Positions 30,412-64,000 of a stretch of DNA of 64,000 bases are shown here, piece by piece. The stretch spans positions 650,244 to 714,243 of the forward strand of contig JAHDYR010000067.1 of assembly GCA_019828565.1 (NCBI GenBank), in the 5' to 3' direction. Numbering within the stretch: position 1 is the first letter of the stretch; every line of letters starts with the position of its first letter. A program made the translations under genes and the position numbers. The stretch is from Carpediemonas membranifera BICM. Its lineage: Eukaryota; Protista; Fornicata. Under the pieces are notes generated by a model. It was not told the DNA's origin and ran no database searches. It worked only from the letters and a program-made list of their open reading frames with translations.

Positions 30412-32034
30412 TCACTCAGCGTCCTCGGCCCAAGGGTCGAGGTCAATCGGGGTGAGCTCACACTTGGGCTTCTCGCACTCGACCAGCTCAGCCACCGCAT
30501 CTGACTCACCCACCACCTTGAACCACTGGCCAGTTGAGCCGCAGAAGCGGATGGCTAATCCGTTGACCGCTGTCGCCTCAATTGGAACCATAGTTGGATT
30601 CTCATCCTCGTAATAGTGGGTGACACCCTCGGTCACCCAGACCATCCGATCATATTCACCCCAGAACCCCTTGACCCTCTCTGGGAACCAGAGCGGGGTG
30701 GATGTGAGGCACTTGTCGCGTTCGCTGAAACCAGGCAGCAGGCCCGACTGGGCGATATGAGGGCGAACTCGACCAGCGAACAGCAGCTGGCGGCCGCTGA
30801 GGAAGATGCTAAAATAACTCGTCTGCGAAATCATGATCCGGTCGACCCTGAAGGGCAGGTCGCCGAAGCGTGTCATATCATCATCGTGCCCGAGCCCCAG
30901 CTGGCCATAATCGTTTCTCCCACTGATCATCTGCCGATCACACATTGAGAGGATGACAGTCGCTGCATTAAACGGACCCACATGCATGATGTGATCTGGG
31001 ACAAAGCCAGACGGCACTGCTACTGGGGTGAACAGACGTCTATTGCCCCTCTCGGCTTCGCCTATGAACCAATTCGCCTTGTTGCCCGCCATGACAGTGC
31101 CGACCGGAGTGAGTATGAACGTCTGATATTCATATATCGACACATCAGTCACCATCCTGTGCTTCTCCCAGGGGGGCAGGCTGGCCTCGAGCGCGGCGAC
31201 CTTGGGGCAGGCGGGGAAGGTGAGGCGGGTCGGGTCGTTGAACTTAAATGACTGGAACCCAAGCTGGCTACGTCCGCTAGTGCCCCAGCCCCACATGCCC
31301 TTGGGCGTCCTGGCGATGTGGGTGATCTCGTTGCCGTAGACCTCGAGGGCCCTGGGCATCCTGGCCCTGGTGAGGGCGGCGTGATAGTCAGTGCGGAGCA
31401 TGAAGAGTCGGCCCATGTACATGCGGTGGTGGTAGCATCTGTCGGGCACAGGGCGCTGATAGCTCTCGCCGTCCTTCTCGGCGACGTTCAGCGAGAAGAA
31501 GAACTTGCGGCAGAGGAACCAGAGGCACTTGGCCTCGGGGGTGAACGCGTCGCTGATCTTGTCGTGTGTCTCAATATCATCTGGCTCCTTCTCTCGAGCC
31601 TCTTTCAGCACCCTGTCCTCGAGGTCGGGGTTGGCCCCGCCGCCCAGCAGACACGCCCACACCGCGCCCTGGTTCAGCGTGTGCATGGCGACCGGGAGCT
31701 CCTCGCCGTCCGCGAGCTCGACGTTCATGGACAGCGGGGGGCCGCTGGTGAGGATCGAGCGGGCGCGGTCGAGGAGGGCTTGCGCGGATGGCTCGAGAGG
31801 AGGGAGCTTGGAGAGCGCGGCGAGGAGGGATTCGAGAGAAGGGGCGCTGGTTGGTGTATAAGTGCTATCTGCTTTGTGAATCGAGGGCATCTGCTTCTTG
31901 AAGTGCCTGACGTAGGCGCATTGGATCAACGAGGGGATGTCCCCAGAGATGGAGGCCGTCACAACAAGCGAGGCGCGGAATGCGGTGATCAGCGCATCTC
32001 TGATGGCAGATGGCGAGGATCTAGTGCTGCTCAT
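30412..32034 (-). CDS. RCC1-like family copy 5 (intact, 540 aa)
   Basis: Full ORF with ISGRNDYGQLGLG; C-terminus identical to copy 4. Confidence 0.75.
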   Translation of the reverse strand: MSSTRSSPSAIRDALITAFRASLVVTASISGDIPSLIQCAYVRHFKKQMPSIHKADSTYTPTSAPSLESLLAALSKLPPLEPSAQALLDRARSILTSGPPLSMNVELADGEELPVAMHTLNQGAVWACLLGGGANPDLEDRVLKEAREKEPDDIETHDKISDAFTPEAKCLWFLCRKFFFSLNVAEKDGESYQRPVPDRCYHHRMYMGRLFMLRTDYHAALTRARMPRALEVYGNEITHIARTPKGMWGWGTSGRSQLGFQSFKFNDPTRLTFPACPKVAALEASLPPWEKHRMVTDVSIYEYQTFILTPVGTVMAGNKANWFIGEAERGNRRLFTPVAVPSGFVPDHIMHVGPFNAATVILSMCDRQMISGRNDYGQLGLGHDDDMTRFGDLPFRVDRIMISQTSYFSIFLSGRQLLFAGRVRPHIAQSGLLPGFSERDKCLTSTPLWFPERVKGFWGEYDRMVWVTEGVTHYYEDENPTMVPIEATAVNGLAIRFCGSTGQWFKVVGESDAVAELVECEKPKCELTPIDLDPWAEDAE

Positions 32035-32309
32035 TGGTTTCAGCGCTCAGTTCGGTGGTGCCCAAATTCTGACTGCCGACTCGCCGACCGCCGACGCCAG
32101 CTGCGAGACATGGCCTTGCAGCAAGCCAAGCCTCACCACAAACATACTTTATACATCCATCGATGACATGCAGCCACCCAGCCAACTCACCGACCCCGCA
32201 GCAGCTTCCGCTAGGCCTTCTCCTCCTCCGTCAGCCGGCCCCACGGTTTAAATAACACGCACCCTCGCCCCTTCCACGCTAATTAACATTTACATGCCCC
32301 ACTACAGCC

Positions 32310-39400: not shown

Positions 39401-39969
39401 TCGACCCACAAGCTGAGCTCACCAAGGTGCACAACACCGCGGTTGGTCATGTGGGCCCCCCCGAGATGATACGCCGTCTGCGAAAGGCGGGCGTCCAGTG
39501 GCCCGGCATGTGGGAGGATGCCCGAGCTTTCTTCACAACGTGCACCGAGTGCCAGCGTGTCCGCCCAGGCCAGCGCTTGCCGGTCCCCCAACACCCAGAC
39601 CTGCGGACAATACCCTTCCAGTCCGTCCAGGTCGACACCCTGGGCCCGTTTGCCCAGGACGAACACGGCCAGAAGTACGTCGTCGTGATCGTAGACGCGT
39701 TTTCTCGACACGTTTCTCTATTCCCGACGCACACTACGTCAGCAAAAGACGCCGCCGACGCAATCTACAAGTTTCGCGCCGCGTTCGGCGTGCCGGAGTT
39801 CATACAGACGGACCAAGGCTCGCAGTACAAGAACAGTTTAATCGAAGAGCTCACAAGAAGCCTCACGATCGAACACCGCTTCTCTACGCCGTACCACCCC
39901 CAAGCAAACGGAAAGGTCGAACGCATGAATGCTGAGATCGCCCGTCACATGAGGACGCTCGTAGATGAA
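36440..39969 (+). pseudogene. Gypsy gag-pol, 5' part; two +1 frameshifts in homopolymers (~38,362 and ~38,985)
   Basis: Protease IIDTGAS; RT DLKQGYHQ, VPFGL and YLDD; RNaseH TDAS, EQEL, TDH and ADALSR; integrase HHCC plus D-D-E (VDTLGP, TDQG, VERMN). Confidence 0.92.
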
Positions 39970-42456
39970 AGAAATTTAACGTATCCTGTACACCTGTGTA
40001 AATCAGGGAATTACCAGTTTGCACCACCCCATGTCCCCGGGAACGCCTTAGCGTGTTGACTTCCCTTCGTGAGCGAGCCTGATACTACGTTGGGGGCGTT
40101 AGCACCATCACCGTCAGGGTCCAGCTGGTAAGGCTGGGTAGTCCCTTGCATGTTGACCTATCAACTGGCTGGCCCGATACCCCCAAAGTCGGGATAACCC
40201 AGGTCTTACTCTTGGGGGTCCTTCGGGCCCCCGTTCTGCCTGGCACCCGCAAGGCCTTGCCCTGCACACCCGCCACCGGGGCCTTCTGCTCGGTTTCCCC
40301 TACAGGGCTCCTCTCAGGGATATGTTCTCCATACCATTCGACCCAGTTTGCAATTTTTCAGGCACCCGCCGAAGCGGTTTCGGGCTTGGCGTTTGCCGTA
40401 CCACGCAATTGGGCCAGTTATGAAACCCACCGATCATCGCTGGGTAGCTATATGATTCACGGCTGCGTTCGGGCTCTTCCACACTTTCCGTTCCGGCATG
40501 GATCCCCTCCTCAAGGATTTGTTCCCTATAGGGCTTCTTCCTAGCTTCCGGCTGGTTCCAAGTTTTGGGTGCCGGGCCGTTCGGCGCAGCTCTGATTTGG
40601 TCCAGGTGCCGCCCAGGTGGTATTGTTGCCTTATGGTTACCCTCCTGTTTGGCTGCTGCGCCCCGATACCTCGCACGTACGTGTATACATGTGCATACGT
40701 GCCCCGCCCTATGGCTCTGGGTTATTTCTTATACGTGTGAAGAGTGTGCCGGTTCTGCCGACTGAATGTTGTCTACGTTCCCAGTATGGGTGAGCGTTTG
40801 TGTGTTAGCGAGATTAGTGTTCGGGGTTGAGTCCCCCTTCCGCGGCTGGGTGCTACCGGGATACGTGGGGCTTGCGTCCCCCGCTGATCCCAGGAGCGCT
40901 CCGCTTCGGTTGAGGCGGGGGTTGGATCCCAGTTTGACCCTGGTCCCAGAGGTCATAGGATTCTGGGATGGTGTACTTACCCGTCTTTCCGGAGGTTCAG
41001 AAGGGCACGTCTGCCGTTCTGCAGTCCCTCTCTGACGGTATGGTCCTCGCTGCGGAGGAGCCAGAGCATTTCCAGGATTGCCCTTGAGTTGTACCACTCC
41101 GCCTCCTGCCCTTGCCTTAGGGCGTGGTACTGTGTGCGTAGATGCGCCTCTGCCAGGATGTCATTCCATCCTTCTGGGCGTTCTACCGCCTTGCATTGGC
41201 AGATGATGTGGCTTTGTGTTCCCAGGGGCTGGTTGTATGCCCATTCTGAGAGGATTTTGGTGGTTTCCGCCGCGGTTCTGGTGACAGTGTACAGGCGAGT
41301 AATGGTGTCACCTTCTGAGTCCAGGGTACATAGGGGGCAACACCGCTTGATCCTGCTCAGGAGGGCCTGGGGCTGGCCGATCGCGCTCCCAAGTATGGCT
41401 CTGCTTCTGCCACTGTTGCTGGGGGAGGGGAGTGTGTTGGATGCAGTCATGATTACTCTCTTGACTTCCCGTCTGGTTATCATCTCACCCTTGATCATTC
41501 CTGGTTTCTTGGGTCTCTTCCCTTGCTGCATGCTGAGGATGACTTCCGGGGCTAGTACTGTTGCCACCCCTTTGGCCGTTCGGCTCCCCGGTGTGCAGTA
41601 GTTCTTCTGCTGTGAGGGTCCAGCCTCCCCTCTTTGCTCTTTCCCTGGCGGGCATCTCCTCCTGTGTGCCCTGGAGGACGCTCCGTCGCCATTGGTAGAG
41701 GCGATGTAAGACCGATCCTCTCTCCGCTGTCGCCCAGTCCAGATTCCCTAGGGGGTCGGACGGTCCGGGTCGTGCGCAGACTCATAGAGCCTCACCGCTC
41801 TCTGCCCCATATCTGCCTCCCAGCACATCCATCCCATTAGTACACGGGCGGCTCCTCCTCCCCCTGGTCCTGTGCCTGCCATTAGGCCGCGCCAGTTGTT
41901 CCAGATGGCTCTTCCCCCTGGCGCTTGGCCCCAGATCTCGATCCCGAACTCGATCTTGGGCCAGAGGAAGGTTCTGAGGATGGATTCCGAGGTGGCGGCC
42001 GGGGTGGATCCTTTGGTCCACCCTGCTCTCCTTGCCAGGGCTAGGTATTTCCGGGATTGTGACGTCTTCATTTTGATGCATGCTGCCAACGGATTCTTCC
42101 CGCTGGCTAGCCAGAGTCCCAGATACCTTGCTGAGTCTGACGCCAGTGTGGGAGTTCCTTGGATGCTGACCGCTGCAGTTACGTCGGTACTTATCACCAC
42201 ACTTTTGCCTGGGCTGGTCTGGAGTCCATGGGCTTCAATTACCCTGACCACTGCGTCTGTGCCTTCTTCGGCGAGCTGTGGGGTCTCGGCTGAGATGCTT
42301 GTATCATCTACAAACATTGCAATGAGGCAGTTTTTGGGCCTATCGTCCGTTGGAGGGAGGCAGGGGTCCGGGATCTCTCTATGCCGGAGGTACAGTGCCG
42401 CCTGGCTTAGCCAGTTAGCTGTGAAGAGAATGAACAGAGTGGGGGCCACCACACAT
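39970..42456 (-). mobile_element. 5'-truncated non-LTR retrotransposon (LINE) inserted antisense into the Gypsy integrase
   Basis: 17-bp TSD GGACGCTCGTAGATGAA at 39953-39969 and 42457-42473; RT motifs APTLFILF, MFVDDT, GLQTSPGKS and RYLG; C-terminal CPLC...HIICQC knuckle; about 1-kb 3' UTR. Confidence 0.92.
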
Positions 42457-42985
42457 GGACGCTCGTAGATGAACACGAAGCCGCTTGGAGCGACATGCTC
42501 CCGCAAGTGGCCCTCATACTCAACTCGCGAGTACACCCCGTGACCCATCAGTCCCCGTTGACCCTCCTCTTTGGTCACGACGGCTTCCACAAGGATACTC
42601 AGAGTCGGGAGGAGCGCTACACACGAGCCAGGAACTCTGTCTCCCGCGACCATGCCAAGAAGCTCGGCCGTGTTGCGTCCACGACCTACCGAGCTTATAC
42701 CAGCGGGAGCCTCGTACTGCTGGCCCCCATCAAGCCGATGAAGCTGGCCATGAAGTGGCGCGGCCCGTTCCGCGTCATACAGGAGGGGAAGGTCAAGGGA
42801 TCGGTCATCATTCAGTCCCTCACCGACGACGCCGACCAGTTCACCGTCGCGTCAGAGCGCCTCCGGCCTTTCCACCGCCGCCGAGGCCAGTCACTCGCAG
42901 AACTTCGGGCACTCGTAGCCCGCCAAGACCGTGAGTTCGAGGTCGAGTCCGTCAAGGACCTCGACATGAAGGGTCGCCGTCTCCA
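42457..42985 (+). pseudogene. Gypsy integrase C-terminus and truncated chromodomain
   Basis: Resumes at TLVDEHEAAWSDMLPQV..LNS..H..T..SP..LLFG; GPY/F module KLAMKWRGPFRV; chromodomain start EFEVESVKDL is cut before the conserved W. Confidence 0.88.
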
Positions 42986-42999
42986 TACTGTGAAAGTCG

Positions 43000-43058
43000 G
43001 TAGATAATCTACGATTTTTTCTAGATAATCTAGGGCCTAAAAACCCTAGATTATCTAC
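43000..43058. repeat. Subterminal TAGATAATCTA repeats: 14-bp perfect inverted arms with an 8-bp spacer, plus a third direct copy
   Basis: TAGATAATCTAGGG (43022-43035), CCTAAAAA, CCCTAGATTATCTA (43044-43057); extra copy at 43001-43011. Confidence 0.9.
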
Positions 43059-44057
43059 GGTTGCAAGAAAAAATGAACTCGACGATGAGCCGGAGCTGGA
43101 TCTTCAAAGTGGTATGGTAGTACTTGGCTATACCTAAGCAATACGCATGCGCAGTATCAAACTTTAAATCCTGCTAGAAAAAAGTAACATAGGGACAAAT
43201 TGGAATTGAGAGTTGAGACTCAAAAAACGGGCAGGGGGGAGGAAATGGTCCATAGGTACGCCTTATGGGTCGCTTCCTCCCTCTGCCCTTTTTAATCGCA
43301 AAATCGATTTGCCGGATTTGACACACGTTTGATGTGATCAAAATGGATTTGATAGACATGGGTCCAGATCATGCAGTTGGCCATCCTGAAGCGCTAGGGT
43401 GGCCTGCAGACCGCAGCAATGCCTCTGCTGAATGCCCTTCATGCCTGACGGACAGGACGCGCGTTGACTATAAAGGACTGCATGTTTCGGCATCAGAAGA
43501 AGGTGTGGAATACAACGGAGTCATCGCCGAACCGCTCCGACCAAGTCGGTTATTAGGACATCGCGTTCAGACGCCCTCTGCAATTACCAAGTCAATAGAT
43601 GGGAGTCGACCTGATCAGCACGTCATTTGGGGCCTCAGGTGACACTATAGCTGAGTTTGGCTGGGCGCTGCTGCGGCCATGGGCCGCTAGCGCGCTGATT
43701 GGCTCGTTTCTCCTCGTATAGCTGCCGTAGAGGTCTGATCTGAGCCTCGTTATAATAGTCTGCCCGAGTAGAGTCCAGCCATACCATAAATGTCCCCCAA
43801 TCTCCCCCTCCCAGTCGCTCATACCTCCAAAATGGCCTATATTCCCTGTAGGGAGATTAATAAGGGCGGATTTCCCATAAGTCGTGGCATAGAGGGAAGA
43901 GACTTTGTACACAGCCTCCTGATCGTGGGTTCAATTTTCACCGGGAGCAATATGCTCTTTTTGGCAGACAACGCCGCTCCGAGCTCTATCGCGCCCAGCG
44001 GTGCCTGCAGCGGCCAGAACAGAGCCAGAATTCGGGTGATTTTTAATCTCGATCGAA

Positions 44058-44715
44058 ATGCTGCTGAAGCACGCTCTAGAGGGACTGAAGCGCTCTACGA
44101 AGGAGCAATACAAGCAGACATATCAAAAACTGTGCGTTTACCTTGAGTGCGACGATGAGGATGCTGATGTTGTTATTATCACAGAGATCCGACAAAATAG
44201 TGACGTATTCGAACAGTTTCTGGACTCTCTGTCCTTCTGTTGCCGTTTTGGACGGTACAAGTCCATCTCGATGCCTCAACAGGCTCTCGTTCGCCTTCTT
44301 CGCACTGCTGGTGCCGAAACCGACCTAATTTGCAGGATAAGGACTCACACGCTTCCGGCACGCCAGGTGCTGACTGAGGAAGAGTACGACAAGCTCACGG
44401 GTGCTCTGAAGTACGACATTGCCGAGTCCCACCGTCAGCTCGCCCTAGTCGTTGCTCTCTGCCGGCTGGGATCGTATGTCGCAGACCTACGTGACTTAGA
44501 CCCGCGCTACAGGAGTTGATGCAAGAGGCTGCCGTGGATCACCCTGCCTTTGAGACCCTTATCTGGATGTCCAAGGACCTTGATTCGCTCTGGGGTAGTC
44601 CCCCATGACAGTCAGGCACGCGAACCGTATCCTGCACGAAGCGGGGATGCAGAGTCTGAAAAGACCCATCTCCCTGTCCGATCTGGATACCCCTGACGAC
44701 AGATGGAATGACTGA
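44058..44715 (+). CDS. Degenerate tyrosine-recombinase-fold protein 1 (two homopolymer frameshifts)
   Basis: STKEQY, VLTEEEYDKL and LCRLGSYVADLRDL (box I with Arg replaced); after frame correction MTVRHANRILHEAG..KRPISLSDL (HxxR lost). Confidence 0.5.
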
Positions 44716-44924
44716 AGCTGTAAACATATCCATTGACTCTGAATCTTTTATTTCTCCATCTGCGAGTTAAGCCAGGCCACTGCCTTTCCGTCAAATATAC
44801 CTTACGTGTGTCGTGCGCCTTCTTTGTTGCTCTTGCGGCTGAAGCATCAACAGTGGCCTGCTTCAACAAATCTCGGCAGCTAGACTTCGGCGTCTTGGTG
44901 CCACGTCGCGTGCAGGCCCACTCT

Positions 44925-45677
44925 CTATCGTCCACGGACCCACCGCACACAACGCATGACCCTGCTAATACGATCGGTGGCTTTCTCCTTCAGCTTCTGT
45001 CGAAGCAGATCGCACATCGCGGTCTTGACGACGCGTCGAGATAATTCATCCGTGCGCAGGGTACTAACAGGCTCAACCAAGAGCTCTGTCTGAGTAGACG
45101 CCTCCTCTAGGTCTCGCACAGTCTGAGTCTCTGCATGCTCACCCTGTGGCGAAAACTGCTGGCATTTTCCCACCATCCTCGGCTTATCAGGATCAGGACC
45201 CAGCGCAGTCATGTAAACAGGTACCTCAACCCGCTTCTCGACTATCTTGACAGGCTGGGAGCCCCTGCGGGAAGGGGCTTGCGGGTGAACTCGCGTCCTG
45301 GTCGGCCCCCCGTTCGCCTCGTTGTGCAGAGCCTCCATGAAGGCATTGAAGCCGTCATCACGGCCCACCTTCTGCGTCACAAACGACATGACGCATGTGA
45401 CCGACATCTCAAAGGATGCAAAATCGGCAGCACTGGAAACATCGCGATTGTGGCAGATTGAGTTTCGAGCTGCCAACAGCTCGCGTATATGTCTCTTATC
45501 AGCGTGGTGAAGATCAGGAACACGATGTAGGATCGCTTGCAAAAGCATAGCCGGATCCATCTCGCCACCGTCACCACGGTACCTCGCGATGTACTCCTGC
45601 AGCTTCGGAATCATCCTCAGTAGCGCTTCAAACATCATGCTGGCGTATCCTGCTGAATCCTTCGCCCCAGAGCTCAT
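44925..45677 (-). CDS. Swt1-like HEPN domain protein
   Basis: MDPAMLL..I followed by IRELLAARNSICH (Rx4H motif) in a helical context. Confidence 0.6.
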   Translation of the reverse strand: MSSGAKDSAGYASMMFEALLRMIPKLQEYIARYRGDGGEMDPAMLLQAILHRVPDLHHADKRHIRELLAARNSICHNRDVSSAADFASFEMSVTCVMSFVTQKVGRDDGFNAFMEALHNEANGGPTRTRVHPQAPSRRGSQPVKIVEKRVEVPVYMTALGPDPDKPRMVGKCQQFSPQGEHAETQTVRDLEEASTQTELLVEPVSTLRTDELSRRVVKTAMCDLLRQKLKEKATDRISRVMRCVRWVRGR

Positions 45678-45937: not shown

Positions 45938-46593
45938 TTATTTCTTCGTGGATACCTTGTCGAAGAACTGCAATGCCAAGGTCAACTTGCCTTCCTTCGT
46001 CATCTCTTTGTCGGTCAGCAGTGTCTCGAAGTCAGCGACAACGAGAGGCCGGCAAGCAAAGGGGTCAGCCCAATAGTCATCTTCGTAGGCGACCGAGAGG
46101 AACTCAAACGGACGAATGTCAACGCTTGCTTCATATACAATGACAGGCAAGACTGCATCCTCCACACAAACATGGCACAGAAGAGCACTGACATTGTGGT
46201 ACTAAATAATTGGGGGAGAGGCATGTTACAAACAGCAGAGTTGTCGTTCACCGTGTGGACTCCAAGCTTGCCCATCAGTGAAGACGCATCCATAGCGAAC
46301 TTCGTCGTGCCAACGCGAGTGCAGTACGTGGGGTCATCCGGCTGGAAGTCGATCAGTCGGCCGCAGTACAGGCCGATGATGCTCTTCGCAGGGATTTCGG
46401 CACGAGACGCGATGCCCTTGCCAGCGGTGCCTCCATATAGCGTGCGCTGATCAGTCATGTACAGCTGTACGCTCTTGGAGACACCGTTGGCCGCTATCGT
46501 GATGTCCCGGTCCAGGAACGAGCTACCCTCCTGCTTCCAGTCAATATCCTTCAAGTCTGCCGGTATTTTTGTCAAACAGCAGCTCATAGTCAT
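45938..46593 (-). CDS. SET-domain methyltransferase-like protein; 32-nt intron 46202-46233
   Basis: GKGIASRAEIPAKSIIGLYCG, MDAS, spliced VNDNSA|YHN, and ASVDIRPFEFLSVAYEDDYW; GTTTGT...TTTAG joins two ORFs in frame. Confidence 0.8.
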
Positions 46594-46947
46594 GACGAGA
46601 CATGCTAGAACCCTCCGAGGGGATTACGATCGTTTCTTCCGACATCGTTCTCAGAATTCGACCCGTTTATAAATCAATAATAAGCAAGCTAAGCTGCAGC
46701 TCAGGCACCCTCCATGCGCTCGTTCCCTGGCATCTTGGCCCGCGGCCTCTTCAGCGGCGTTTCGGCCCCTCTCGTAAATCGAGAGGTCTTCTTGATGTTG
46801 TTACTGTCTCTGTGCTCCCATTGCTTGCCAGTCTCATTGTAGTGTTAAGTTAGTGCCAAATGGTCTTTATTGCTGTTCGCTCGCATTAATACGGAAGAGA
46901 AAGAATGATGATGTTGATTAGCTTGCGGGGAAAGGCATTACCAAGCA

Positions 46948-49945
46948 TTTGACGCGCACAACCTGCTTAATACTGCATAAACGCATCGCTGATCGCTTTC
47001 TCTTCTGTTCTTCAACGCCCAAGGAGCGGCTTCCAGGTCGGCAACGGTTGCCGACCTGGACCCGTGCAGTTTATGCTTTTTCGGCCAACCGACGAAGTCA
47101 AGCTTGGCCAAGACACATACTGTGTACACGGACCCTGGCAGGCTAGTTACGCCGCTCAGCCTCTGCATCCAGTTGATAATCACTCGCCATTTACTTCTGG
47201 TGCTTTTCCTGCTCTCTCTTCTCCATCACGTCGTCATACTCGGCCCTCGTCAGCCTCACAGTTGTCATCCCGGCATCACGGATGTGCTCAAAGGCCTCAA
47301 CGGGCAGCTTCGGCATCCCGTCCTCGCTGTCGCTGCTGCTGCCCAAGTCTGACTCGCTCTCGTGATAGCGGCGAAGGCGAATGCGTCTGCTGGGCTCCCT
47401 GGTCTTCATAGCGTCATAGAGCGGAGCGAGCCCACTTCCATTGGCCCCGCTACGGACACCCTCATCGGTATCTCTCTCAGACATATCACACTCAACCTGT
47501 TGTGACTGAAGAAATGACAGGTTGTCGACGAGGCTATCCTCGGCATCGCTGTCTGAACTCTCCTCATCCTCCCACTCTCCTTCCAGCATCTCCAACCCGG
47601 CCTCATCGTCAAACTCGCCCTCCACTGCGGTCTCCGGCATCTCTGCCTCGCCAGCTGTCTCGTCAAACAGCGCCTCATCGTCAGACTCACCCTCCCCCGT
47701 GTCGCCCCCCTCGGGATTACGCTGGTCGTGGAGCTGGACCATCCTCATCCTGAGCTTTTTGTAAAGCCACCAGGTCGGCAGAGCTTAAGGTAATCCTGGC
47801 GCCCTCATCCTGGCGCCTCATCCCTGGCGCCGTCATCCCTGGCGTCCTCTCCCTCATAAATCTGAATCATCTTCTTGTCTTGCTCCCGATGTTGTCATTG
47901 CTGTTTTCGTGTCCACAAGCATTCCAGTCTCATTATAATGTTTATTCAGTACCAAATCATCCTTTAGTGACGGGCATTCTCCTCTACATTGCCGAGAAAA
48001 AGAGTTGATGTTGATTAGATGGTGACGAATGCATTACCGGACATTTGACGCGCACAACCTGCTTAATACTGCATAAAAGCATCGCTGATCGCTTTCTCTT
48101 CTGTTCTTCAACGCCCAAGGAGCGGCTTCCAGGTCGGCAACGGTTGCCGACCTGGACCCGTGCAGTTTATGCTTTTTCGGCCAACCGACGAAGTCAAGCT
48201 TAGCCAAGACACATACTGTGTACACGGACCCTGGCAGGCTAGTTACGCCGCTCAGCCTCTGCATCCAGTTGATAATCACTCGCCATTTACTTCTGGTGCT
48301 TTTCCTGCTCTCTCTTCTCCATCACGTCGTCATACTCGGCCCTCGTCAGCCTCACAGTTGTCATCCCGGCATCACGGATGTGCTCAAAGGCCTCAACGGG
48401 CAGCTTCGGCATCCCGTCCTCGCTGTCGCTGCTGCTGCCCAAGTCTGACTCGCTCTCGTGATAGCGGCGAAGGCGAATGCGTCTGCTGGGCACCCTGGTC
48501 TTCATAGCGTCATAGAGCGGAGCGAGCCCACTTCCATTGGCCCCGCTACGGACACCCTCATCGGTATCTCTCTCAGACATATCACACTCAACCTGTTGTG
48601 ACTGAACAAATGACAGGTTGTCGACGAGGCTATCCTCGGCATCGCTGTCTGAACTCTCCTCATCCTCCCACTCTCCTTCCAGCATCTCCAACCCGGCCTC
48701 ATCGTCAAACTCGCCCTCCACTGCGGTCTCCGGCATCTCTGCCTCGCCAGCTGTCTCGTCAAACAGCGCCTCATCGTCAGACTCACCCTCCCCCGTGTCG
48801 ACCCCATCGGGATTACGCTGGTCGTGGAGCTGGACCATCCTCATCCTGAGCTTTTTGTAAAGCCACCAGGTCGGCAGAGCTTAAGGTAATCCTGGCGCCC
48901 TCATCCTGGCGCCTCATCCCTGGCGCCGTCATCCCTGGCGTCCTCTCCCTCATAAATCTGAATCATCTTCTTGTCTTGCTCCCGATGTTGTCATTGCTGT
49001 TTTCGTGTCCACAAGCATTCCAGTCTCATTATAATGTTTATTCAGTACCAAATCATCCTTTAGTGACGGGCATTCTCCTCTGCATTGCCGAGAAAAAGAG
49101 TTGATGTTGATTAGATGGTGACGAATGCATTACCGGACATTTGACGCGCACAACCTGCTTAATACTGCATAAAAGCATCGCTGATCGCTTTCTCTTCTGT
49201 TCTTCAACGCCCAAGGAGCGGCTTCCAGGTCGGCAACCGTTGCCGACCTGGACCCGTGCAGTTTATGCTTTTTCGGCCAACCGACGAAGTCAAGCTTGGC
49301 CAAGACACATACTGTGTACAAGGACCCTGGCAGGCTAGTTACGCCGCTCAGCCTCTGCATCCAGTTGATAATCACTCGCCATTTACTTCTGGTGCTTTTC
49401 CTGCTCTCTCTTCTCCATCACGTCGTCATACTCGGCCCTCGTCAGCCTCACAGTTGTCATCCCGGCATCACGGATGTGCTCAAAGGCCTCAACGGGCAGC
49501 TTCGGCATCCCGTCCTCGCTGTCGCTGCTGCTGCCCAAGTCTGACTCGCTCTCGTGATAGCGGCGAAGGCGAATGCGTCTGCTGGGCTCCCTGGTCTTCA
49601 TAGCGTCATAGAGCGGAGCGAGCCCACTTCCATTGGCCCCGCTACGGACACCCTCATCGGTATCTCTCTCAGACATATCACACTCAACCTGTTGTGACTG
49701 GAAGAAATGACAGGTTGTCGACGAGGCTATCCTCGGCATCGCTGTCTGAACTCTCCTCATCCTCCCACTCTCCTTCCAGCATCTCCAACCCGGCCTCATC
49801 GTCAAACTCGCCCTCCACTGCGGTCTCCGGCATCTCTGCCTCGCCAGCTGTCTCGTCAAACAGCGCCTCATCGTCAGACTCACCCTCCCCCGTGTCGACC
49901 CCCTCGGGCTTACGCTGGTCGTGGAGCTGGACCATCCTAATCCTG
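46948..49945 (-). repeat. Array A: about 2.7 tandem copies of a 1,096-bp unit
   Basis: Near-identical ORFs at 46938, 48034 and 49130 (period 1096). Confidence 0.95.
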
Positions 49946-50745
49946 AGCTTGTTGTAAAGCCAGTCATCGAGCGTCGGCGGCACCAGGTCAGCAGAGCTTC
50001 GGATCTCCGGGTTGAGATCGAGGATCGTTGGGCGCCGCGTGGTCGTTAAGTGACTGGACGCCAACTGGTGCCTGAACTGCTCATCGGTCAGGCTGATGCG
50101 CTTGTCCTTAATGACCTTCTGAGGCTTCTCCCGCGGTCTGCCGCGGCGCTCTAGCGTGCCGATAGACTGCATCCTATCGGTGGACACGTCGATCCGCTGC
50201 GCAAAGCGAAGCATGCGAACCGTCAACCCCTGAACCTTGAGCGCCTCCGATACAGCACTGGCCTGCGGGAATCCCGATTTGAGCGTGCCAAAGCCCATCC
50301 AGCTCGGGCACGAGGTAAGGTCTATCGCATCGGGGAGATTACCTTGGAGATACGAATACTCCCAGCCCGTCTGGTTGAGCAGAATGGCAATGGCGCCATA
50401 CGGGCTGGGGAGACTCTCAACTGATGCAGGCGACACCTCTTCCTCCTCTTTCCAGGACAACGGCTTCGCGGGGTGTGGCAAGTCGAAGTTCCGGAAAGAC
50501 TGAACAGCCGAAACGATCTTCTTCTGCGTCCCCAGAGGCTTCTCAGCGAGGTACCGGCGCAAATGGGTTACCAGCTCGGCACTACGAACAATCGCGATGC
50601 CCTTCTGGATATCTGTGGCGGTTTCCTGACAAATTCTGGCCAAAACGTCTTTCAGAAGCTTGTTGTAGTTCGTACGCGATTTGGTTGGAACATTCTTCAA
50701 CCAACGCTTCATGATATCTTCGTCTATTGCCGCTACAGCCTCCAT
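49383..50745 (-). CDS. Degenerate tyrosine-recombinase-fold protein 2 with acidic tail (1-nt frameshift ~49,700); likely source of the repeat ORF
   Basis: SRTNY, YLAEKPLGTQKKIVSAVQSF (SAM-like), AILLNQTGWEYSYL (box I with Arg lost) and GLTVRMLR; 3' half equals the 185-aa repeat ORF. Confidence 0.5.
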
Positions 50746-51873: not shown

Positions 51874-53858
51874 ATGACGTTCGAATTCCTTCACGAGTGG
51901 ATCGAGAGCACCTCAGATGATGTGATTGAGGCCGTTATCACCGAATTCAAGGAGAAGAAGACAAACAAGGCGAAGAGTGCCGTTCTTCGGGACAAATTGC
52001 TCGACGAGAACGATATCTTCGATATAGTCGTCAAGAACGGTACGTAATTGGTGCAAATGTTTATATAGGGATCAACTTTAACCACCTGTGCTCATATTTC
52101 GAGATTCAGGGCGAGAAGAAGGCAGAACTCGAGGCATTGCTGTCTCAGCAGGTGCAGGATAAGACCTCGAACGAGAACATCGAGGCAACCTTCACGGAGA
52201 AGGAGATGAAGGCGTTTGAGTCGGCCGCTGTCACAGCCTTCAAGAACTCCAAGAGGGCTGAGTATGCCAAGGAGAATGAGGGCGCGCGTATCGAAAAAGA
52301 GGCGCTGAGTGTCAAGGTTCGGGCGTGGCGCAACGCGACATCCACCAACGCGCTTGTGCGCGACCATGTCACAGCAATGGTTGCCAGGGTGCGCAGCAAG
52401 GAGGCAGACCTTGCTTACATGAAGCACTCCTGCCGCTCGTACTTCGAAGAGTACATCATCGCCCTGGAATGGTTGGAGACCCCCGCGGGAGAAGGTACGC
52501 CCCTGCTCCCCCCAGGTACTGGCGCTATCATCGATTACTATCACAAAATTGTTCGAGGATACAAGAAGAGAGTCAAGCAGTTGAGGAAGAGCTTGACGGC
52601 AAAGAGTGAGGAAGTCATCACGCTGCATCGACGCCTTCTGCAGCAGCAGGCTGAGCGAGAGGCAGCCTATGACGCTGACAAGTCCATGGATGCATCACTC
52701 CCATGCAGCCCCATCCCGCCACAGTCTGGCACAGTCTCCAGGACTTCCTGTCCCCGACGCGATACGGACGAGGCGCAGGCAGCCATGTCTGTGAAGCGCA
52801 AGGCCCTCATCATCACGCCCGAGAAGGCCAGGCCAGAGGACTCGGAGGAGGAGTCAGAGGAGGAAGAGGAGCCAGTGGAGGAGGTCGAGTCAGAGGAGGA
52901 AGAGGAGCCAGTGGAGGAGGTCGAGTCAGAGGAGGAAGAGGAGCCAGTGGCGGATGAGTTGATGGAGGAGCTGCACTTTGGCGACCTCGAGGGCGGCAAC
53001 TCCGGCGACGACGAGGATGTTTGCTCAGCGTCTGCACAAGCAACCGCTCCGAATGACCTGGCAGACCCCATAGACCTCAACTTTACGCCTGAGATGAAGG
53101 ATATCATCGCACAGCACTCTCCGGCCAAGAGTAAGTCAGAGGAGGAGCAGGAGGAAGAGAAGGCCGAGTCAGACGAGGAGGGTGGGGCAGAGGAGGAGGG
53201 TGAAACCGAGGAGAGCGGAAGAGTGGTCAACGCCAGGTCTGACCCAACCCGCTACAACCGAACTGTGGCATTCGACATGATCATCACGACAAGGCTTCCG
53301 AGTTCAGGTTGGCCTACGTATCCGACCCTGGGTTATGGGAACTGCATCATTCACTGCCTGATGATGATGTCGGGTCTGAGAACATTTACTGCGTTCAGAC
53401 GCAAATTGCCCTTGTCGCAGAAGCTCAAGGCTGAGGATGAGGCGACAGCTTACCGCCAGACGCTCCTCGCCCACGCAAGGACCATGGCCGTATTCTCAAA
53501 GATGACAGAGATAGAGCTTCTGGATGAGCTGTTTCCTGAGCACGTCAATAGTGACGGGACAGTGACGAGATGGGCATGCGTTGAAGCAATCAGAGTGTGG
53601 ACTTCGATGACAGGGAAGCCGACCATGCTTGTCAACATTGATGAGAAGATGATCACGCACATTTACCGTAACGAGAAGGGCAATGCATTGACAGTGCGGC
53701 GTCCCTTCGATGGCGATCAGAGTAGAGCGCTGGAGAGTTTTAGGGCGGAGTGCGCCAGGCTCGACATCAACTACGTGATACAGTTGATGGGTCGACATGC
53801 AACTTTGCGGAAGGTCTCAAAGCCGACCCAGGTGAAGATTAGGAGACGTAAGAACTAA
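51874..53858 (+). CDS. OTU-like cysteine protease domain protein with coiled-coil and acidic region; 29-nt intron 52040-52068
   Basis: GTACGT...TATAG joins the upstream exon in frame; motifs PTLGYGNCII, WACVEAIRV and LMGRHA. Confidence 0.65.
52851..52950 (+). repeat. 36-bp coding tandem repeat x2.8 (ESEEEEEPVEEV)
   Basis: GAGTCAGAGGAGGAAGAGGAGCCAGTGGAGGAGGTC repeated. Confidence 0.9.
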
Positions 53859-54041: not shown

Positions 54042-56555
54042 AGCATAAACTGCACGGGTCCAGGTCGGCAACCGTTGCCGACCTGGAAGCCGCTCCTTGG
54101 GCGTTGAAGAACAGAAGAGAAAGCGATCAGCGATGCTTTTATGCAGTATTAAGCAGGTTGTGCGCGTCAAATGTCCGGTAATGCATTCGTCACCATCTAA
54201 TCAACATCAACTCTTTTTCTCGGCAATGCAGATGAGAATGCCCGTCACTAAAGGATGATTTGGTACTGAATAAACATTATAATGAGACTGGAATGCTTGT
54301 GGACACGAAAACAGCAATGACAACATCGGGAGCAAGACAAGAAGATGATTCAGATTTATGAGGGAGAGGACGCCAGGGATGACGGCGCCAGGGATGAGGC
54401 GCCAGGATGAGGGCGCCAGGATTACCTTAAGCTCTGCCGACCTGGTGGCTTTACAAAAAGCTCAGGATGAGGATGGTCCAGCTCCACGACCAGCGTAATC
54501 CCGATGGGGGTCGACACGGGGGAGGGTGAGTCTGACGATGAGGCGCTGTTTGACGAGACAGCTGGCGAGGCAGAGATGCCGGAGACCGCAGTGGAGGGCG
54601 AGTTTGACGATGAGGCCGGGTTGGAGATGCTGGAAGGAGAGTGGGAGGATGAGGAGAGTTCAGACAGCGATGCCGAGGATAGCCTCGTCGACAACCTGTC
54701 ATTTCTTCAGTCACAACAGGTTGAGTGTGATATGTCTGAGAGAGATACCGATGAGGGTGTCCGTAGCGGGGCCAATGGAAGTGGGCTCGCTCCGCTCTAT
54801 GACTCATGAAGACCAGGGAGCCCAGCAGACGCATTCGCCTTCGCCGCTATCACGAGAGCGAGTCAGACTTGGGCAGCAGCAGCGACAGCGAGGACGGGAT
54901 GCCGAAGCTGCCCGTTGAGGCCTTTGAGCACATCCGTGATGCCGGGATGACAACTGTGAGGCTGACGAGGGCCGAGTATGACGACGTGATGGAGAAGAGA
55001 GAGCAGGAAAAGCACCAGAAGTAAATGGCGAGTGATTATCAACTGGATGCAGAGGCTGAGCGGCGTAACTAGCCTGCCAGGGTCCTTGTACACAGTATGT
55101 GTCTTGGCCAAGCTTGACTTCGTCGGTTGGCCGAAAAAGCATAAACTGCACGGGTCCAGGTCGGCAACCGTTGCCGACCTGGAAGCCGCTCCTTGGGCGT
55201 TGAAGAACAGAAGAGAAAGCGATCAGCGATGCTTTTATGCAGTATTAAGCAGGTTGTGCGCGTCAAATGTCCGGTAATGCATTCGTCACCATCTAATCAA
55301 CATCAACTCTTTTTCTCGGCAATGCAGATGAGAATGCCCGTCACTAAAGGATGATTTGGTACTGAATAAACATTATAATGAGACTGGAATGCTTGTGGAC
55401 ACGAAAACAGCAATGACAACATCGGGAGCAAGACAAGAAGATGATTCAGATTTATGAGGGAGAGGACGCCAGGGATGACGGCGCCAGGGATGAGGCGCCA
55501 GGATGAGGGCGCCAGGATTACCTTAAGCTCTGCCGACCTGGTGGCTTTACAAAAAGCTCAGGATGAGGATGGTCCAGCTCCACGACCAGCGTAATCCCGA
55601 TGGGGGTCGACACGGGGAGGGTGAGTCTGACGATGAGGCGCTGTTTGACGAGACAGCTGGCGAGGCAGAGATGCCGGAGACCGCAGTGGAGGGCGAGTTT
55701 GACGATGAGGCCGGGTTGGAGATGCTGGAAGGAGAGTGGGAGGATGAGGAGAGTTCAGACAGCGATGCCGAGGATAGCCTCGTCGACAACCTGTCATTTC
55801 TTCAGTCACAACAGGTTGAGTGTGATATGTCTGAGAGAGATACCGATGAGGGTGTCCGTAGCGGGGCCAATGGAAGTGGGCTCGCTCCGCTCTATGACTC
55901 AATGAAGACCAGGGAGCCCAGCAGACGCATTCGCCTTCGCCGCTATCACGAGAGCGAGTCAGACTTGGGCAGCAGCAGCGACAGCGAGGACGGGATGCCG
56001 AAGCTGCCCGTTGAGGCCTTTGAGCACATCCGTGATGCCGGGATGACAACTGTGAGGCTGACGAGGGCCGAGTATGACGACGTGATGGAGAAGAGAGAGC
56101 AGGAAAAGCACCAGAAGTAAATGGCGAGTGATTATCAACTGGATGCAGAGGCTGAGCGGCGTAACTAGCCTGCCAGGGTCCTTGTACACAGTATGTGTCT
56201 TGGCCAAGCTTGACTTCGTCGGTTGGCCGAAAAAGCATAAACTGCACGGGTCCAGGTCGGCAACCGTTGCCGACCTGGAAGCCGCTCCTTGGGCGTTGAA
56301 GAACAGAAGAGAAAGCGATCAGCGATGCTTTTATGCAGTATTAAGCAGGTTGTGCGCGTCAAATGTCCGGTAATGCATTCGTCACCATCTAATCAACATC
56401 AACTCTTTTTCTCGGCAATGCAGAGGAGAATGCCCGTCACTAAAGGATGATTTGGTACTGAATAAACATTATAATGAGACTGGAATGCTTGTGGACACGA
56501 AAACAGCAATGACAACATCGGGAGCAAGACAAGAAGATGATTCAGATTTATGAGG
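54042..56555 (+). repeat. Array B: about 2.3 copies of the 1,096-bp unit, inverted relative to array A
   Basis: Same ORFs on the + strand at 55032 and 56128. Confidence 0.95.
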
Positions 56556-57980: not shown

Positions 57981-58892
57981 TTACTTACCAAACCGAGTAA
58001 AGGAGCTACGGGTAAACTGCTCCAACAGCTTTCGAGCCTGAGGCGAAGGCTGCGGACAATACCAGCTGCGAGTAGTTTTGTTTTCGACCAGATTGTTTTG
58101 TTTGGCGTCTGCAGTCGCCTCGCACGGTTTCTGCCAAGTTCTGGTCACCCACGGCTCCTCCCACTTGGTGAGGTGATATCCGGACTCAAACTTGGAGATA
58201 GAGTCTATGGCATAGTGCATCACAGTGTCAGTGAGCTGAACAGCAGTCACCTCTCCAGTGACGAGATCGGCTGTGCTCGTAAAGTTGGCCCAGTCAATAA
58301 AGTCCTTGAAGACTTCAGGAGAAATCTTGCGAAGGGCATAGTGCTCCCACCAGACCGTGAAAGCAGTAGGATGGCTGACGATTGCGTAAGCCCTCTTGGC
58401 CACACTCGTCGGTGCGATGGTAATGCACGCCTTCCTGACCTTGTCGCTCGGTAGTCTCATGCGCCTCACCTTAGCAGCAATGTCACACCAAACAACCAAG
58501 TCCTGCACGTCTTTGAGCAGTGCGAGGGTGGTGTCGATCGACATTGACGACGGATCACCAGCACCGAAACCTGCGAAGACTGTCGTCTGAATGTCGACTG
58601 CCACAGAGCCCGAGAACGACACAAGAAGGCTGTTCGTTCTCTCCATCATCCACTTACTGCCACACTGAGTGCATAGCCAAGCGGAAAAGAACGAGCTGCG
58701 GACATCGGCCCTGATTTTGGCTGTGTTACCGTTATTCTCGCCCTCGTTAAGCCTACTGATTGTGAATAGCGAGTACTTGTCCATAAAGAGCTCAAAAGCT
58801 TCCTTAAAAGCCGTTGTCTCTTGCTGTTGGGTGCTTGACGTGATAGTGTTCATTTCCATCCGTGCAGAGCCCAGCCGAACGTCTCTAGACAT
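57981..58892 (-). CDS. Hypothetical protein (element cargo)
   Basis: About 300-aa ORF convergent on the previous gene; the upstream extension in the ORF track lies in repeat array C. Confidence 0.55.
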   Translation of the reverse strand: MSRDVRLGSARMEMNTITSSTQQQETTAFKEAFELFMDKYSLFTISRLNEGENNGNTAKIRADVRSSFFSAWLCTQCGSKWMMERTNSLLVSFSGSVAVDIQTTVFAGFGAGDPSSMSIDTTLALLKDVQDLVVWCDIAAKVRRMRLPSDKVRKACITIAPTSVAKRAYAIVSHPTAFTVWWEHYALRKISPEVFKDFIDWANFTSTADLVTGEVTAVQLTDTVMHYAIDSISKFESGYHLTKWEEPWVTRTWQKPCEATADAKQNNLVENKTTRSWYCPQPSPQARKLLEQFTRSSFTRFGK

Positions 58893-58897
58893 AGTCT

Positions 58898-60296
58898 GAG
58901 CAGCGTAACTAGCCTGCCAGGGTCCTTGTACGCAGTATGTGTCTTGGCCAAGCTTGAATTCGTCGGTTGGCCGAAAAAGCATAAACTGCACGGGTCCAGG
59001 TCGGCAACCGTTGCCGACCTGGAAGCCGCTCCTTGGGCGTTGAAGAACAGAAGAGAAAGCGATCAGCGATGCTTTTATGCAGTATTAAGCAGGTTGTGCG
59101 CGTCAAATGTCCGGTAATGCATTCGTCACCATCTAATCAACATCAACTCTTTTTCTCGGCAATGCAGATGAGAATGCCCGTCACTAAAGGATGATTTGGT
59201 ACTGAATAAACATTATAATGAGACTGGAATGCTTGTGGACACGAAAACAGCAATGACAACATCGGGAGCAAGACAAGAAGATGATTCAGATTTATGAGGG
59301 AGAGGACGCCAGGGATGACGGCGCCAGGGATGAGGCGCCAGGATGAGGGCGCCAGGATTACCTTAAGCTCTGCCGACCTGGTGGCTTTACAAAAAGCTCA
59401 GGATGAGGATGGTCCAGCTCCACGACCAGCGTAATCCCGAGGGGGGCGACACGGGGGAGGGTGAGTCTGACGATGAGGCGCTGTTTGACGAGACAGCTGG
59501 CGAGGCAGAGATGCCGGAGACCGCAGTGGAGGGCGAGTTTGACGATGAGGCCGGGTTGGAGATGCTGGAAGGAGAGTGGGAGGATGAGGAGAGTTCAGAC
59601 AGCGATGCCGAGGATAGCCTCGTCGACAACCTGTCATTTCTTCAGTCACAACAGGTTGAGTGTGATATGTCTGAGAGAGATACCGATGAGGGTGTCCGTA
59701 GCGGGGCCAATGGAAGTGGGCTCGCTCCGCTCTATGACGCTATGAAGACCAGGGTGCCCAGCAGACGCATTCGCCTTCGCCGCTATCACGAGAGCGAGTC
59801 AGACTTGGGCAGCAGCAGCGACAGCGAGGACGGGATGCCGAAGCTGCCCGTTGAGGCCTTTGAGCACATCCGTGATGCCGGGATGACAACTGTGAGGCTG
59901 ACGAGGGCCGAGTATGACGACGTGATGGAGAAGAGAGAGCAGGAAAAGCACCAGAAGTAAATGGCGAGTGATTATCAACTGGATGCAGAGGCTGAGCGGC
60001 GTAACTAGCCTGCCAGGGTCCGTGTACACAGTATGTGTCTTGGCTAAGCTTGACTTCGTCGGTTGGCCGAAAAAGCATAAACTGCACGGGTCCAGGTCGG
60101 CAACCGTTGCCGACCTGGAAGCCGCTCCTTGGGCGTTGAAGAACAGAAGAGAAAGCGATCAGCGATGCTTTTTATGCAGTATTAAGCAGGTTGTGCGCGT
60201 CAAATGTCCGGTAATGCATTCGTCACCATCTAATCAACATCAACTCTTTTTCTCGGCAATGCAGAGGAGAATGCCCGTCACTAAAGGATGATTTGG
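58898..60296 (+). repeat. Array C: about 1.3 copies of the 1,096-bp unit
   Basis: 185-aa ORF at 59403-59960; palindromes at 58995 and 60091. Confidence 0.95.
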
Positions 60297-61870: not shown

Positions 61871-62047
61871 TCCAGAGTAGATTTTCTACTAAAAATTGGC
61901 ATTGTTACAACCAATCATTAACATTAATAGAGACTCACCAGCCCGCGGCCAATCGTGACTCAGGTTCGCATCAGACGTCGACAGAGACGAGTTAAACATG
62001 AGGCTGGGCAATTGTCTTCTGAGCTAATCCTTAACCTTTCAAAGAGG

Positions 62048-64000
62048 ATGCTAATACCGAAGTGGACGCTATTACACGGCACTATTTATGCTCCTCAAGA
62101 GGATACTGGCATCAACACCATTCTATGCAGCGTGTACCTTTCCATTGACTCAGATAACGTCAGCACACATCGGTTTCGTGTTTCCAAAGCTCCCCAACGC
62201 CGTGAGTTCGTCCAGGTTGTTCAAGAGTTGCTCAGTGCAGGATATATATGTCGCCAGGATGTTTCAAAGCAGCTGTACCCCTCTCCGACTGCCACATCTA
62301 TCGCTGCGGAGAAGAGGAATCACACGACTTACCCAAGAGCCTACGTGAAGCATACATCCGCAGTTGACACTCTCGCAGCCGAGAATGAGTGTCTACGGAA
62401 GCGTCTGGCCGACACGGAGCGCCTGATTCAACTAACGAACCAGCTCAAGTCCATCACAAACGGATACAATGCCGTTAACGACGAGATCCGCATAATGAAC
62501 TCTCTTGCAGGTAGGCTTAACCTTGATATTGTGCGGATATCTCCTGTTACCTCGAAGATCAAGTCTCTCGCGTGTAATATCCAGAATATGGAGGAGATAG
62601 AATCACTTCTCCAATCTGACACCGCTTGGAGGAGATTTATCCGCAGTCACGTTCCCGCCAACATTCAGCACAGGGTAACGGCGAGAAGGTCTGATCAGGC
62701 CAATCAGGAATATGAGCTCGACCTCATCACCCATGTCGAAGCTCCTCTTGATGTTGTACGATCATCTATTCAGGGCGACTCGGCCCATGCAGAGCACGTT
62801 GCAGGAAAGATCGTCGTCTTCTATGACTCAGAGCAGGACCGTGAGACTCACTATAGCATCATGAAAGAGCAAGGCCTCACCCCTCGGATGCAGACGAGTG
62901 CAAGATATACCCATGTATATCATGCATCATTTGATATCATGGAGTATTATCGCCAAGCGGTTGCATTCCCCGTATCGCTGGAGACGTCACGATCCGGGCG
63001 CAAGAGTGCAGCTCGGACATTAAGACGACAGAGTCATTCCGCTGAGACGGGGACGATCCCACTCGTGTTAGAGGTGTGGGTCGATGCGTGGAGAGGGCTG
63101 ACAACCGCTGTTAAGATTCGTTTCCTCGACGACTCCCACAAAGTCTTTCCGTCTGGTGCGACTCCTCCTTTCCGGATTCTTGAATACAACGGCCCAGAAA
63201 GTCTCATCACTGAGCATTTTGCCTTCATTGAACAGTCCATCGAGAGCACACACCGCGAGGTGCTGGAAGTCAGGAACACGGGTCTCCTCTGCCGAGTAAC
63301 GCGTGTCTTTATTATCGCTGACCATCCAGCCATGTCCAAGGTTTGCGGGGCACTCATTGGAGGCAATTACCCCTCGCCATTCAGTCCCGTTCATTCGAAG
63401 AACAAGGGCTGGAGTCCCTTTGGTCGCACCCCGCGCTGCACCTTGGCAGATATCCTGCTGGCGAAGCATAAGTCACAGTTCGACACTATTATGGACAGAG
63501 AGGCCAAATGGGGATCCTTCTATAACCATCAGAAGAAGTGCATCGCTCCCACTTTGTTTGAGACGTCGACTGCGTCGCTGCCCAGAGACTGCGTCTTCTT
63601 ATTCCCTCCAATCATGCATGTCAGTCATGACTTTGTGTCGTTGATTCATGCCATGTGCCGCATGTTCAAGCCAGAGCCAATTGACCCAGAGAGCGACCCT
63701 CGTCAAATTAAGGAGGTGAAGGCAAGGAACGCGATGCTAGCGAATCTGGCGTCGTTTGAGCCACCCAGCCGTACGACGGGCTGCAACGAGCAAGTCAAGG
63801 GGAGAAAGATGATAGCATCGATTGGACTTAAGCTGCATCGTGCGTTCCCGCCACCCGTGCAGTCATTATTCATACTCGCTGCATATCTCCAGGAGCACTA
63901 CTATTCCCACGAGGATGTAACTGAGAACATGGTCGTGTGGCATCGCTTGACAGCACTTCTCGTGCACCTCTTCTCTGTGACCATGTGTCTTAGCACATCT
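62048..64000 (+). CDS. RAG1/Transib/CMC-like DDE transposase candidate, partial (651 codons, runs off the window)
   Basis: Hand-translated stop-free ORF from ATG 62048; motifs LEVWVDAW, PFRILEYNGPES, FIIADHPAMSKVCG..GGNYP, PPIMH and VKGRKM occur in the expected order. Confidence 0.6.
   Translation, partial: MLIPKWTLLHGTIYAPQEDTGINTILCSVYLSIDSDNVSTHRFRVSKAPQRREFVQVVQELLSAGYICRQDVSKQLYPSPTATSIAAEKRNHTTYPRAYVKHTSAVDTLAAENECLRKRLADTERLIQLTNQLKSITNGYNAVNDEIRIMNSLAGRLNLDIVRISPVTSKIKSLACNIQNMEEIESLLQSDTAWRRFIRSHVPANIQHRVTARRSDQANQEYELDLITHVEAPLDVVRSSIQGDSAHAEHVAGKIVVFYDSEQDRETHYSIMKEQGLTPRMQTSARYTHVYHASFDIMEYYRQAVAFPVSLETSRSGRKSAARTLRRQSHSAETGTIPLVLEVWVDAWRGLTTAVKIRFLDDSHKVFPSGATPPFRILEYNGPESLITEHFAFIEQSIESTHREVLEVRNTGLLCRVTRVFIIADHPAMSKVCGALIGGNYPSPFSPVHSKNKGWSPFGRTPRCTLADILLAKHKSQFDTIMDREAKWGSFYNHQKKCIAPTLFETSTASLPRDCVFLFPPIMHVSHDFVSLIHAMCRMFKPEPIDPESDPRQIKEVKARNAMLANLASFEPPSRTTGCNEQVKGRKMIASIGLKLHRAFPPPVQSLFILAAYLQEHYYSHEDVTENMVVWHRLTALLVHLFSVTMCLSTS

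Follow-up and report, generated by a model that had tools for sequence, protein, structure and literature searches.

Background

Antibody-gene recombination has its origin in RAG1-related transposons. Transib and RAG-like transposons are flanked by a 5-bp target site duplication, with matching inverted repeats at the two ends. The first three positions of the heptamer (CAC) show no variation across all Transib ends and RSSs, the Transib spacer is 23 (or 12) and autonomous Transib elements are 3-4 kb long, according to the available portion of PMC1131882; the nonamer is missing from some RAGL ends (accessible part of bioRxiv 10.1101/2023.08.20.553239). Most ends in the EnSpm/Transib/Plavaka clade have the form 5'-CA..TG-3', and PlavakaB ends start with CATCA (available text of PMC12730594). 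In CACTA/En/Spm elements a separate protein, TnpA, binds the subterminal repeats and regulates the element (available text of PMC2613891). Another protist has RAG-like elements with CAC ends and 5-bp duplications (available portions of PMC9435367 and bioRxiv 10.1101/2023.08.20.553239). The main text of PMC8516963 makes no mention of transposons, RAG, retroelements or integrase, and its supplements may bear on the point. In literature without most subscription papers and without Repbase we found no published RAG1-related transposon in Carpediemonas, and in literature without most subscription papers no inactive tyrosine recombinase tied to a eukaryotic transposon.

Carpediemonas membranifera is a free-living metamonad. 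The stretch of its DNA analysed here, 64,000 nucleotides in all and called the window below, likely contains part of an undescribed giant RAG1-fold transposon marked by palindromes. The proteins encoded in the window have close-to-identical named relatives in C. membranifera. The element has in common with Transib, ProtoRAG and AanRAGL a predicted RAG1-type DDE fold and motif order. It differs from Transib and RAGL elements in that its junction is without CAC and without a nonamer at 12/23 spacing, its block exceeds 21 kb as against the 3-4 kb of Transib, its C(2)C position reads YPSPF, and no RAG2-like gene was recognised in the visible part. EnSpm/CACTA and the CMCT group (ESTA, Plavaka, Chapaev, Mirage) are large cargo-bearing elements with a RAG1-related transposase (available text of PMC12730594), as appears to be the case here, and the C. 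membranifera motif is short and repeated like the EnSpm/CACTA subterminal motifs bound by the separate TnpA (available text of PMC2613891). Compared with CMCT elements, the motif is palindromic and present three times, the helper candidates have a tyrosine-recombinase fold, C(2)C and H(3-4)H were not found, and the CA end is uncertain. Tests for the CAC end, the 12/23 spacing and the zinc motifs found none of them, and for this reason we do not class the element as Transib, RAGL or CMCT.

The left flank and the junction

A Gypsy retrotransposon lies to the left of the palindromes, with gag-pol starting at 36440 and Pfam matches to protease, RT, RNase H and integrase. Its integrase is interrupted by a minus-strand non-LTR retrotransposon fragment (39970-42456), whose 17-bp target duplication lies at 39953-39969 and 42457-42473; the integrase frame picks up again at 42457 and reaches a stop codon at 43005. 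At 43000 the GC content falls from about 60% to 25-40%, and from there to the end of the window the DNA is a different block, more than 21 kb long to the right of the junction and multi-copy in C. membranifera. The area around the junction is a nest of broken elements. The Gypsy piece has about 36-37 relatives, which carry the chromodomain, and is the sole member of its 90% cluster; no longer Gypsy relative was found among 2209 candidates, which is weak evidence. A second LTR was absent from the five block stretches compared with the Gypsy 5' region (nothing scored above shuffles), and the chromodomain profile did not resume right of the junction up to 43400; on these two results we rejected a short insertion in an otherwise whole Gypsy element. 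The features that meet at the junction are as follows.

42457..42995, plus strand: 3' piece of the Gypsy integrase and start of its chromodomain, broken off at the junction (from the frame, Pfam and relatives)
42984..42995, plus strand: the 12 bp in dispute, CATACTGTGAAA, probably the final Gypsy codons (H-T-V-K) ahead of the chromodomain Trp, otherwise the first bases of the element with a CA start at 42984

Three positions are candidates for the start of the block: CAT (42984), TAC (42986) and GTC (42996). In the Gypsy frame, a gap-free alignment pairs the window peptide KGRRLHTVKV with KGKRQYLIKW of P0028. The chromodomain test used the 18 Gypsy relatives, out of 36, that have a readable chromodomain strand. 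TVK scores 5.8 on the three columns before the Trp. Of the 18 real strands 8 score at least this high, and so do between 0.2% (a single register) and 1.7% (seven registers) of 20,000 draws of random block DNA. A Val-to-Trp distance of 19 in the chromodomain would follow, which is absent among the 17 measured (16-30, mode 21), and automatic alignments did not place TVK on the chromodomain strand. H-T-V-K fits the chromodomain strand, and therefore TACTGTG with the AAA that follows it is probably made up of Gypsy codons; we judge it probable that the block begins near 42996 (junction 42995/42996), where it would start with GTCG, without the 5'-CA of most relatives. A beginning at 42984 is unlikely; of 15-bp stretches, 9-12% contain a CA-start heptamer within two mismatches and about 70% contain a CA. 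The preliminary description had begun the block at 42986, bases that the Gypsy frame crosses as H-T-V-K, and this position, the least likely of the three, is very doubtful.

The same description had seen an RSS-like geometry in TACTGTG (42986-42992) and CTAAAAACC (43037-43045), a 7/9 match to the RSS nonamer. Both motifs are present, 44 bp apart, but the geometry does not stand: there is no CAC, the spacer is 44 and not 12 or 23, and the pairing is at chance level. TACTGTG begins with T and is two mismatches from CACAGTG. CACTGTG, with which it had been compared, corresponds to the RSS heptamer on the opposite strand, and it had therefore been paired with a nonamer in the other orientation. 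No CAC occurs between 42978 and 42995. Starting from TACTGTG the nonamer match is 3/9 at spacer 12 and 0/9 at spacer 23, and for all 18 starts from 42978 to 42995 there are at least four nonamer mismatches at spacers 11-13 and 22-24. A loose test for heptamer plus nonamer is satisfied at 14 places in the window, the edge site included, several of them inside repeats. As some RAGL ends have no nonamer, the spacing test excludes the RSS type only, and the end tests cover one junction.

The palindrome cluster at the block edge

The edge carries three copies of an odd palindrome, TAGAT(A/T)ATCTA, which start at 43001, 43022 and 43047; from centre to centre the distances are 21 and 25 bp.

43000..43012, no strand: palindrome copy 1, GTAGATAATCTAC (core TAGAT-A-ATCTA at 43001-43011)
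43021..43033, no strand: palindrome copy 2, CTAGATAATCTAG, centre 21 bp from that of copy 1
43046..43058, no strand: palindrome copy 3, CTAGATTATCTAC, with the middle base flipped and its centre 25 bp from that of copy 2
43022..43057, no strand: 14-8-14 inverted repeat formed by copies 2 and 3 plus GGG/CCC, containing the nonamer-like CTAAAAACC (43037-43045)

The copies begin within 5-17 bp of the junction; the closest codon at which a gene could start is about 800-1050 bp from them. Neither the 14-bp arms nor the triple 11-mer arose in any of 1000 dinucleotide shuffles of 42980-43379, the 11-mer triple within 70 bp is the only one in the 64-kb window, and the strand in the palindrome region folds far better than shuffles (z -7.3). 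The palindrome array is known from one junction only, and other copies of the block demonstrably share sequence only from 43790 inward (P0091). The 36-bp inverted repeat had no exact match in metagenome contigs. The double-palindrome pattern was found at 15 loci in viral contigs, all AT-rich (22-41% GC) and several of them simple tandem repeats, and none resembled the C. membranifera site in the 80 bases viewed at each. Rfam on 42900-64000 and a tRNA scan of the whole window gave no matches.

The perfect 14-bp inverted arms reported earlier (43022-43035 and 43044-43057, around the 8-bp spacer CCTAAAAA) are there, and the reported third copy of the arm core is present as the 11-bp core at 43001. 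It had been overlooked that the arm core is itself palindromic, with 10 of the 14 arm bases 'inverted' between any two copies. Because each arm core is a palindrome, the inverted arms are nearly automatic, and what is extra is the GGG/CCC and the flipped middle base. Arms of loxP and FRT are non-palindromic, each for one monomer. The locus is like loxP/FRT in its two inverted arms, asymmetric 8-bp spacer and third repeat; it differs in that the arms are palindromic, the third copy lies 10 bp from the core and no catalytically complete recombinase was seen in the part of the element up to 64000; another could be encoded beyond it. The layout of a tyrosine-recombinase site is therefore upheld as far as the 14-8-14 geometry goes, and a working site is not, given the palindromic arms and the block proteins with tyrosine-recombinase-like features (YR1 and YR2, below), in which no catalytic residues were seen. 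The window holds no second 14-8-14 site.

A transposase of predicted RAG1 fold and a fourth near-copy

Two features near the right end of the window are of interest here.

61877..61889, no strand: fourth near-copy of the palindrome, GTAGATTTTCTAC, 12/13, in the gap that separates a minus-strand gene (ATG at 61870) from the transposase (ATG at 62051)
62051..64000, plus strand: predicted RAG1/Transib-fold DDE protein, 840 aa as P0007, extending beyond the end of the window

The transposase family consists of P0007 and ten relatives, all from C. membranifera; P0006 (57 aa), which fell in the transposase cluster, was left out as unrelated by eye. A Pfam sequence search did not detect the transposase, and a PDB search with its profile returned one coiled-coil match only. 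With its structural model, of low overall confidence (mean pLDDT 51), Foldseek placed RAG1, RAGL and Transib structures in the top ranks, BbRAGL and HzTransib among the matches, with a best E of 6e-4. The best VIA match was core RAG1/2 (Z 8.0, rmsd 9.9, 328 aligned), a Z of 8 being the tool's ambiguous level, and RAG1 was the top Atlas feature (0.93). A candidate triad, D346, D425 and E705, was assigned by eye; the two D motifs are kept in all 11 family proteins and the E motif in 5/5 of those that reach it intact. A RAG1-type DDE catalytic core is thus predicted from the model. The C(2)C position reads YPSPF, without cysteines, in 11/11 proteins (by eye, under the definition in the available text of PMC12730594), and the second zinc motif, H(3-4)H, has one His or none in the 11 proteins, again by eye. 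Searches of metagenome and viral contigs with the transposase gave 163 and 17 pattern matches, of which none was confirmed.

With one mismatch allowed, GTAGATTTTCTAC is the only further match to the palindrome in 64 kb. Over the whole window the number expected by chance is 0.01-0.06 as a 13-mer and 0.22 as an 11-mer, figures to be read with the fact that the fourth site was found post hoc and its flanks were picked from the three edge copies. Its place as a possible operator at the transposase gene suggests a binding site rather than a crossover site.

Two diverged transposase subfamilies (P0003, P0004, P0012) are found on the same contig with tags two apart (7645 and 7647), which suggests that the elements occur in clusters. 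A long peptide repeat replaces the catalytic C-terminus in P0004.

Recombinase-like proteins without recognisable catalytic residues

The block also encodes two kinds of protein with recombinase-like features and, beside the first of them, a HEPN-like gene.

44058..44712, plus strand: YR1, the first gene of the block, with two frame breaks; its product has 220 aa in two other copies and was judged integrase-like by eye alone
44751..45677, minus strand: HEPN-like gene, Pfam HEPN_Swt1 below the cut-off, in an 11-member cluster
49687..50745, minus strand: YR2, with an Xer/integrase core-binding fold, catalytic residues absent, an AT-hook-like RxGRP and an acidic tail

The fold of YR2 was taken from a 97% identical full-length copy, whose model is of low overall confidence (mean pLDDT 53) and is unreliable after residue 190. 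In VIA the top ten matches of this model were all recombinase-fold chains, with XerD at Z 8.0, rmsd 2.7 and 81 aligned, and with XerA, an integron integrase, SroF, Ndc10 and MrpR among the others; Foldseek gave no match under E 0.001. The gene at 49687-50745 itself has integrase N-terminal features. Ndc10 and MrpR are non-catalytic binders, and proteins of the Ndc10, MrpR and SroF type have roles at yeast centromeres or in phage regulation; we know of no role for these three at the ends of DDE transposons. The tyrosine-recombinase motifs of YR1 and YR2 were assigned by eye. On that footing, 21/21 motif-bearing YR2 proteins (22 examined) have no Arg after TG, no HxxR His and no later Tyr, and both intact YR1 proteins (2/2) have no catalytic Arg or Tyr box. 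YR1 and YR2 have no BLAST similarity to each other.

For seven of the nine transposase records with locus tags, a YR-family gene is found no more than 11 tags away, compared with 6.9% of all tags; the 11-tag distance was set after viewing the data, and the transposase copies are related. One other locus has the order of the window: YR1 (8734), HEPN-like (8735), YR2 tails (8739 and 8743) and transposase (8745). The folds and this linkage in other copies support the earlier view that a large multi-copy block, encoding RAG1/Transib-fold and recombinase-fold proteins, has its edge at this site. No kelch (RAG2-like) match was found among the block frames scanned in the visible part, up to 64000.

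The frame breaks at 44500-44600 (YR1) and near 44980 (HEPN-like) are found also in P0090 and P0094 and in P0053 and P0055, and other copies are intact. The common breaks reflect either an amplified broken subfamily or a systematic sequencing error.

Interpretation of the palindromes

The explanation that we favour, at a probability of about 0.5, is that the three palindromes are subterminal binding sites of a giant RAG1-fold cut-and-paste transposon. Candidate subterminal binding repeats had been among the readings offered in the preliminary description and are the best of them. Each palindrome would take one dimer of a protein that the element encodes. This protein is most likely a catalytically dead one of tyrosine-recombinase fold and otherwise the transposase itself, the dead recombinase-fold proteins being the best candidates because they retain the DNA-binding domain. 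The array may bring the end together for the RAG1-like enzyme to cut, in the manner of TnpA on the subterminal repeats of En/Spm, and at the fourth site (61877) the same protein could regulate transposase expression by feedback. A start near 42996 would mean that the end is not of CA type or that its outermost bases have been lost. By analogy, the element likely combines an end that functions in the CACTA manner with a RAG1-type enzyme.

The palindromes could instead be internal control sequences (an enhancer or operator, a host-factor site or a cruciform-forming origin), and the Gypsy junction would then mark the breakpoint of a deletion or rearrangement. What speaks for such a role is the absence of CAC from every candidate start, the many broken elements around the junction, the position of the fourth copy in a promoter-like gap and strand folding that stands out from shuffles; so does one other copy in which a YR2-family gene stands two tags outside YR1 (8703 vs 8705), as the unit could then extend to the left. 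Genes outside YR1 elsewhere might equally belong to a neighbouring element, however, and immediately beside a junction and far from start codons is where end-binding sites lie, and we consider internal control unlikely. A little less likely again is an element of EnSpm/Transib/Plavaka type that starts at 42984 (CATACTG), with the palindromes subterminal and the H-T-V-K fit coincidental. Ends of the form 5'-CA..TG-3' are usual in that clade, with CATCA in PlavakaB (available text of PMC12730594), and CATACTG keeps the CA at two mismatches from CACAGTG, but its third base is not C, such heptamers and any CA are as common as given above, and the TVK fit would have to be a coincidence of 0.2-1.7%.

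Recombination at the palindromes themselves is improbable. Under this explanation 43022-43057 would be a loxP/FRT-like crossover at which an element tyrosine recombinase excises, circularises or resolves the element, and the 14-8-14 layout, asymmetric spacer, third copy and recombinase-fold proteins of the block are what recommend it; the palindromic arms, which make the inversion nearly automatic and are not those of loxP/FRT, and the missing partner site in the window weigh against it, and YR families without catalytic residues (the YR2 family and two intact YR1 proteins, by eye) argue against recombination of this kind. Least probable of all, and very much so, is an RSS end, with a Transib-like heptamer as the start of the element at 42986 and CTAAAAACC as nonamer. 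The predicted RAG1-like fold of the transposase and the retention of both conserved adenines in the nonamer-like sequence are in its favour, against a first base of T where positions 1-3 are invariant elsewhere, a spacer of 44 with 14 equal pairings within the window, and TACTGTG bases that can be read as chromodomain codons.

A broader proposal can be put forward, tentatively and with more doubt than belief: that giant metamonad RAG1-fold transposons dropped RSS recognition, and that dead YR-fold dimers on end and promoter palindromes act as an end-binding, self-regulating partner that replaces RAG2 or TnpA. The motif alone is of modest interest, subterminal repeats being ordinary. The element is several times larger than Transib, is without the zinc motifs of the clade and is accompanied by dead recombinase-fold proteins; should the YR proteins bind the palindromes, a RAG1-type enzyme would be able to pair with a wholly different end-recognition module.

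Other repeats and possible cargo in the window

A 1096-bp unit, made up of the 3' half of YR2 and a spacer, forms arrays at 46828-49962, 54042-56555 and 58890-60383, the first opposite in direction to the other two, with units 95-99% identical; each unit has a 29-bp palindrome (14-bp arms, 1-bp centre), eight copies in total. Possible chromatin-related cargo was noted among 46018-46593, 51930-53858 and 60591-61112, comprising a SET-like start and an OTU-like protease tail (by eye, no Pfam match) and a cysteine-rich finger (FYVE E 0.022, below the cut-off). An RCC1-like repeat gene is present in five copies (1242-2870, 10555-11721, 17450-18640, 24933-26342 and 30412-32046), which are 87-99% identical in DNA over their common parts and are dispersed among host signalling genes.
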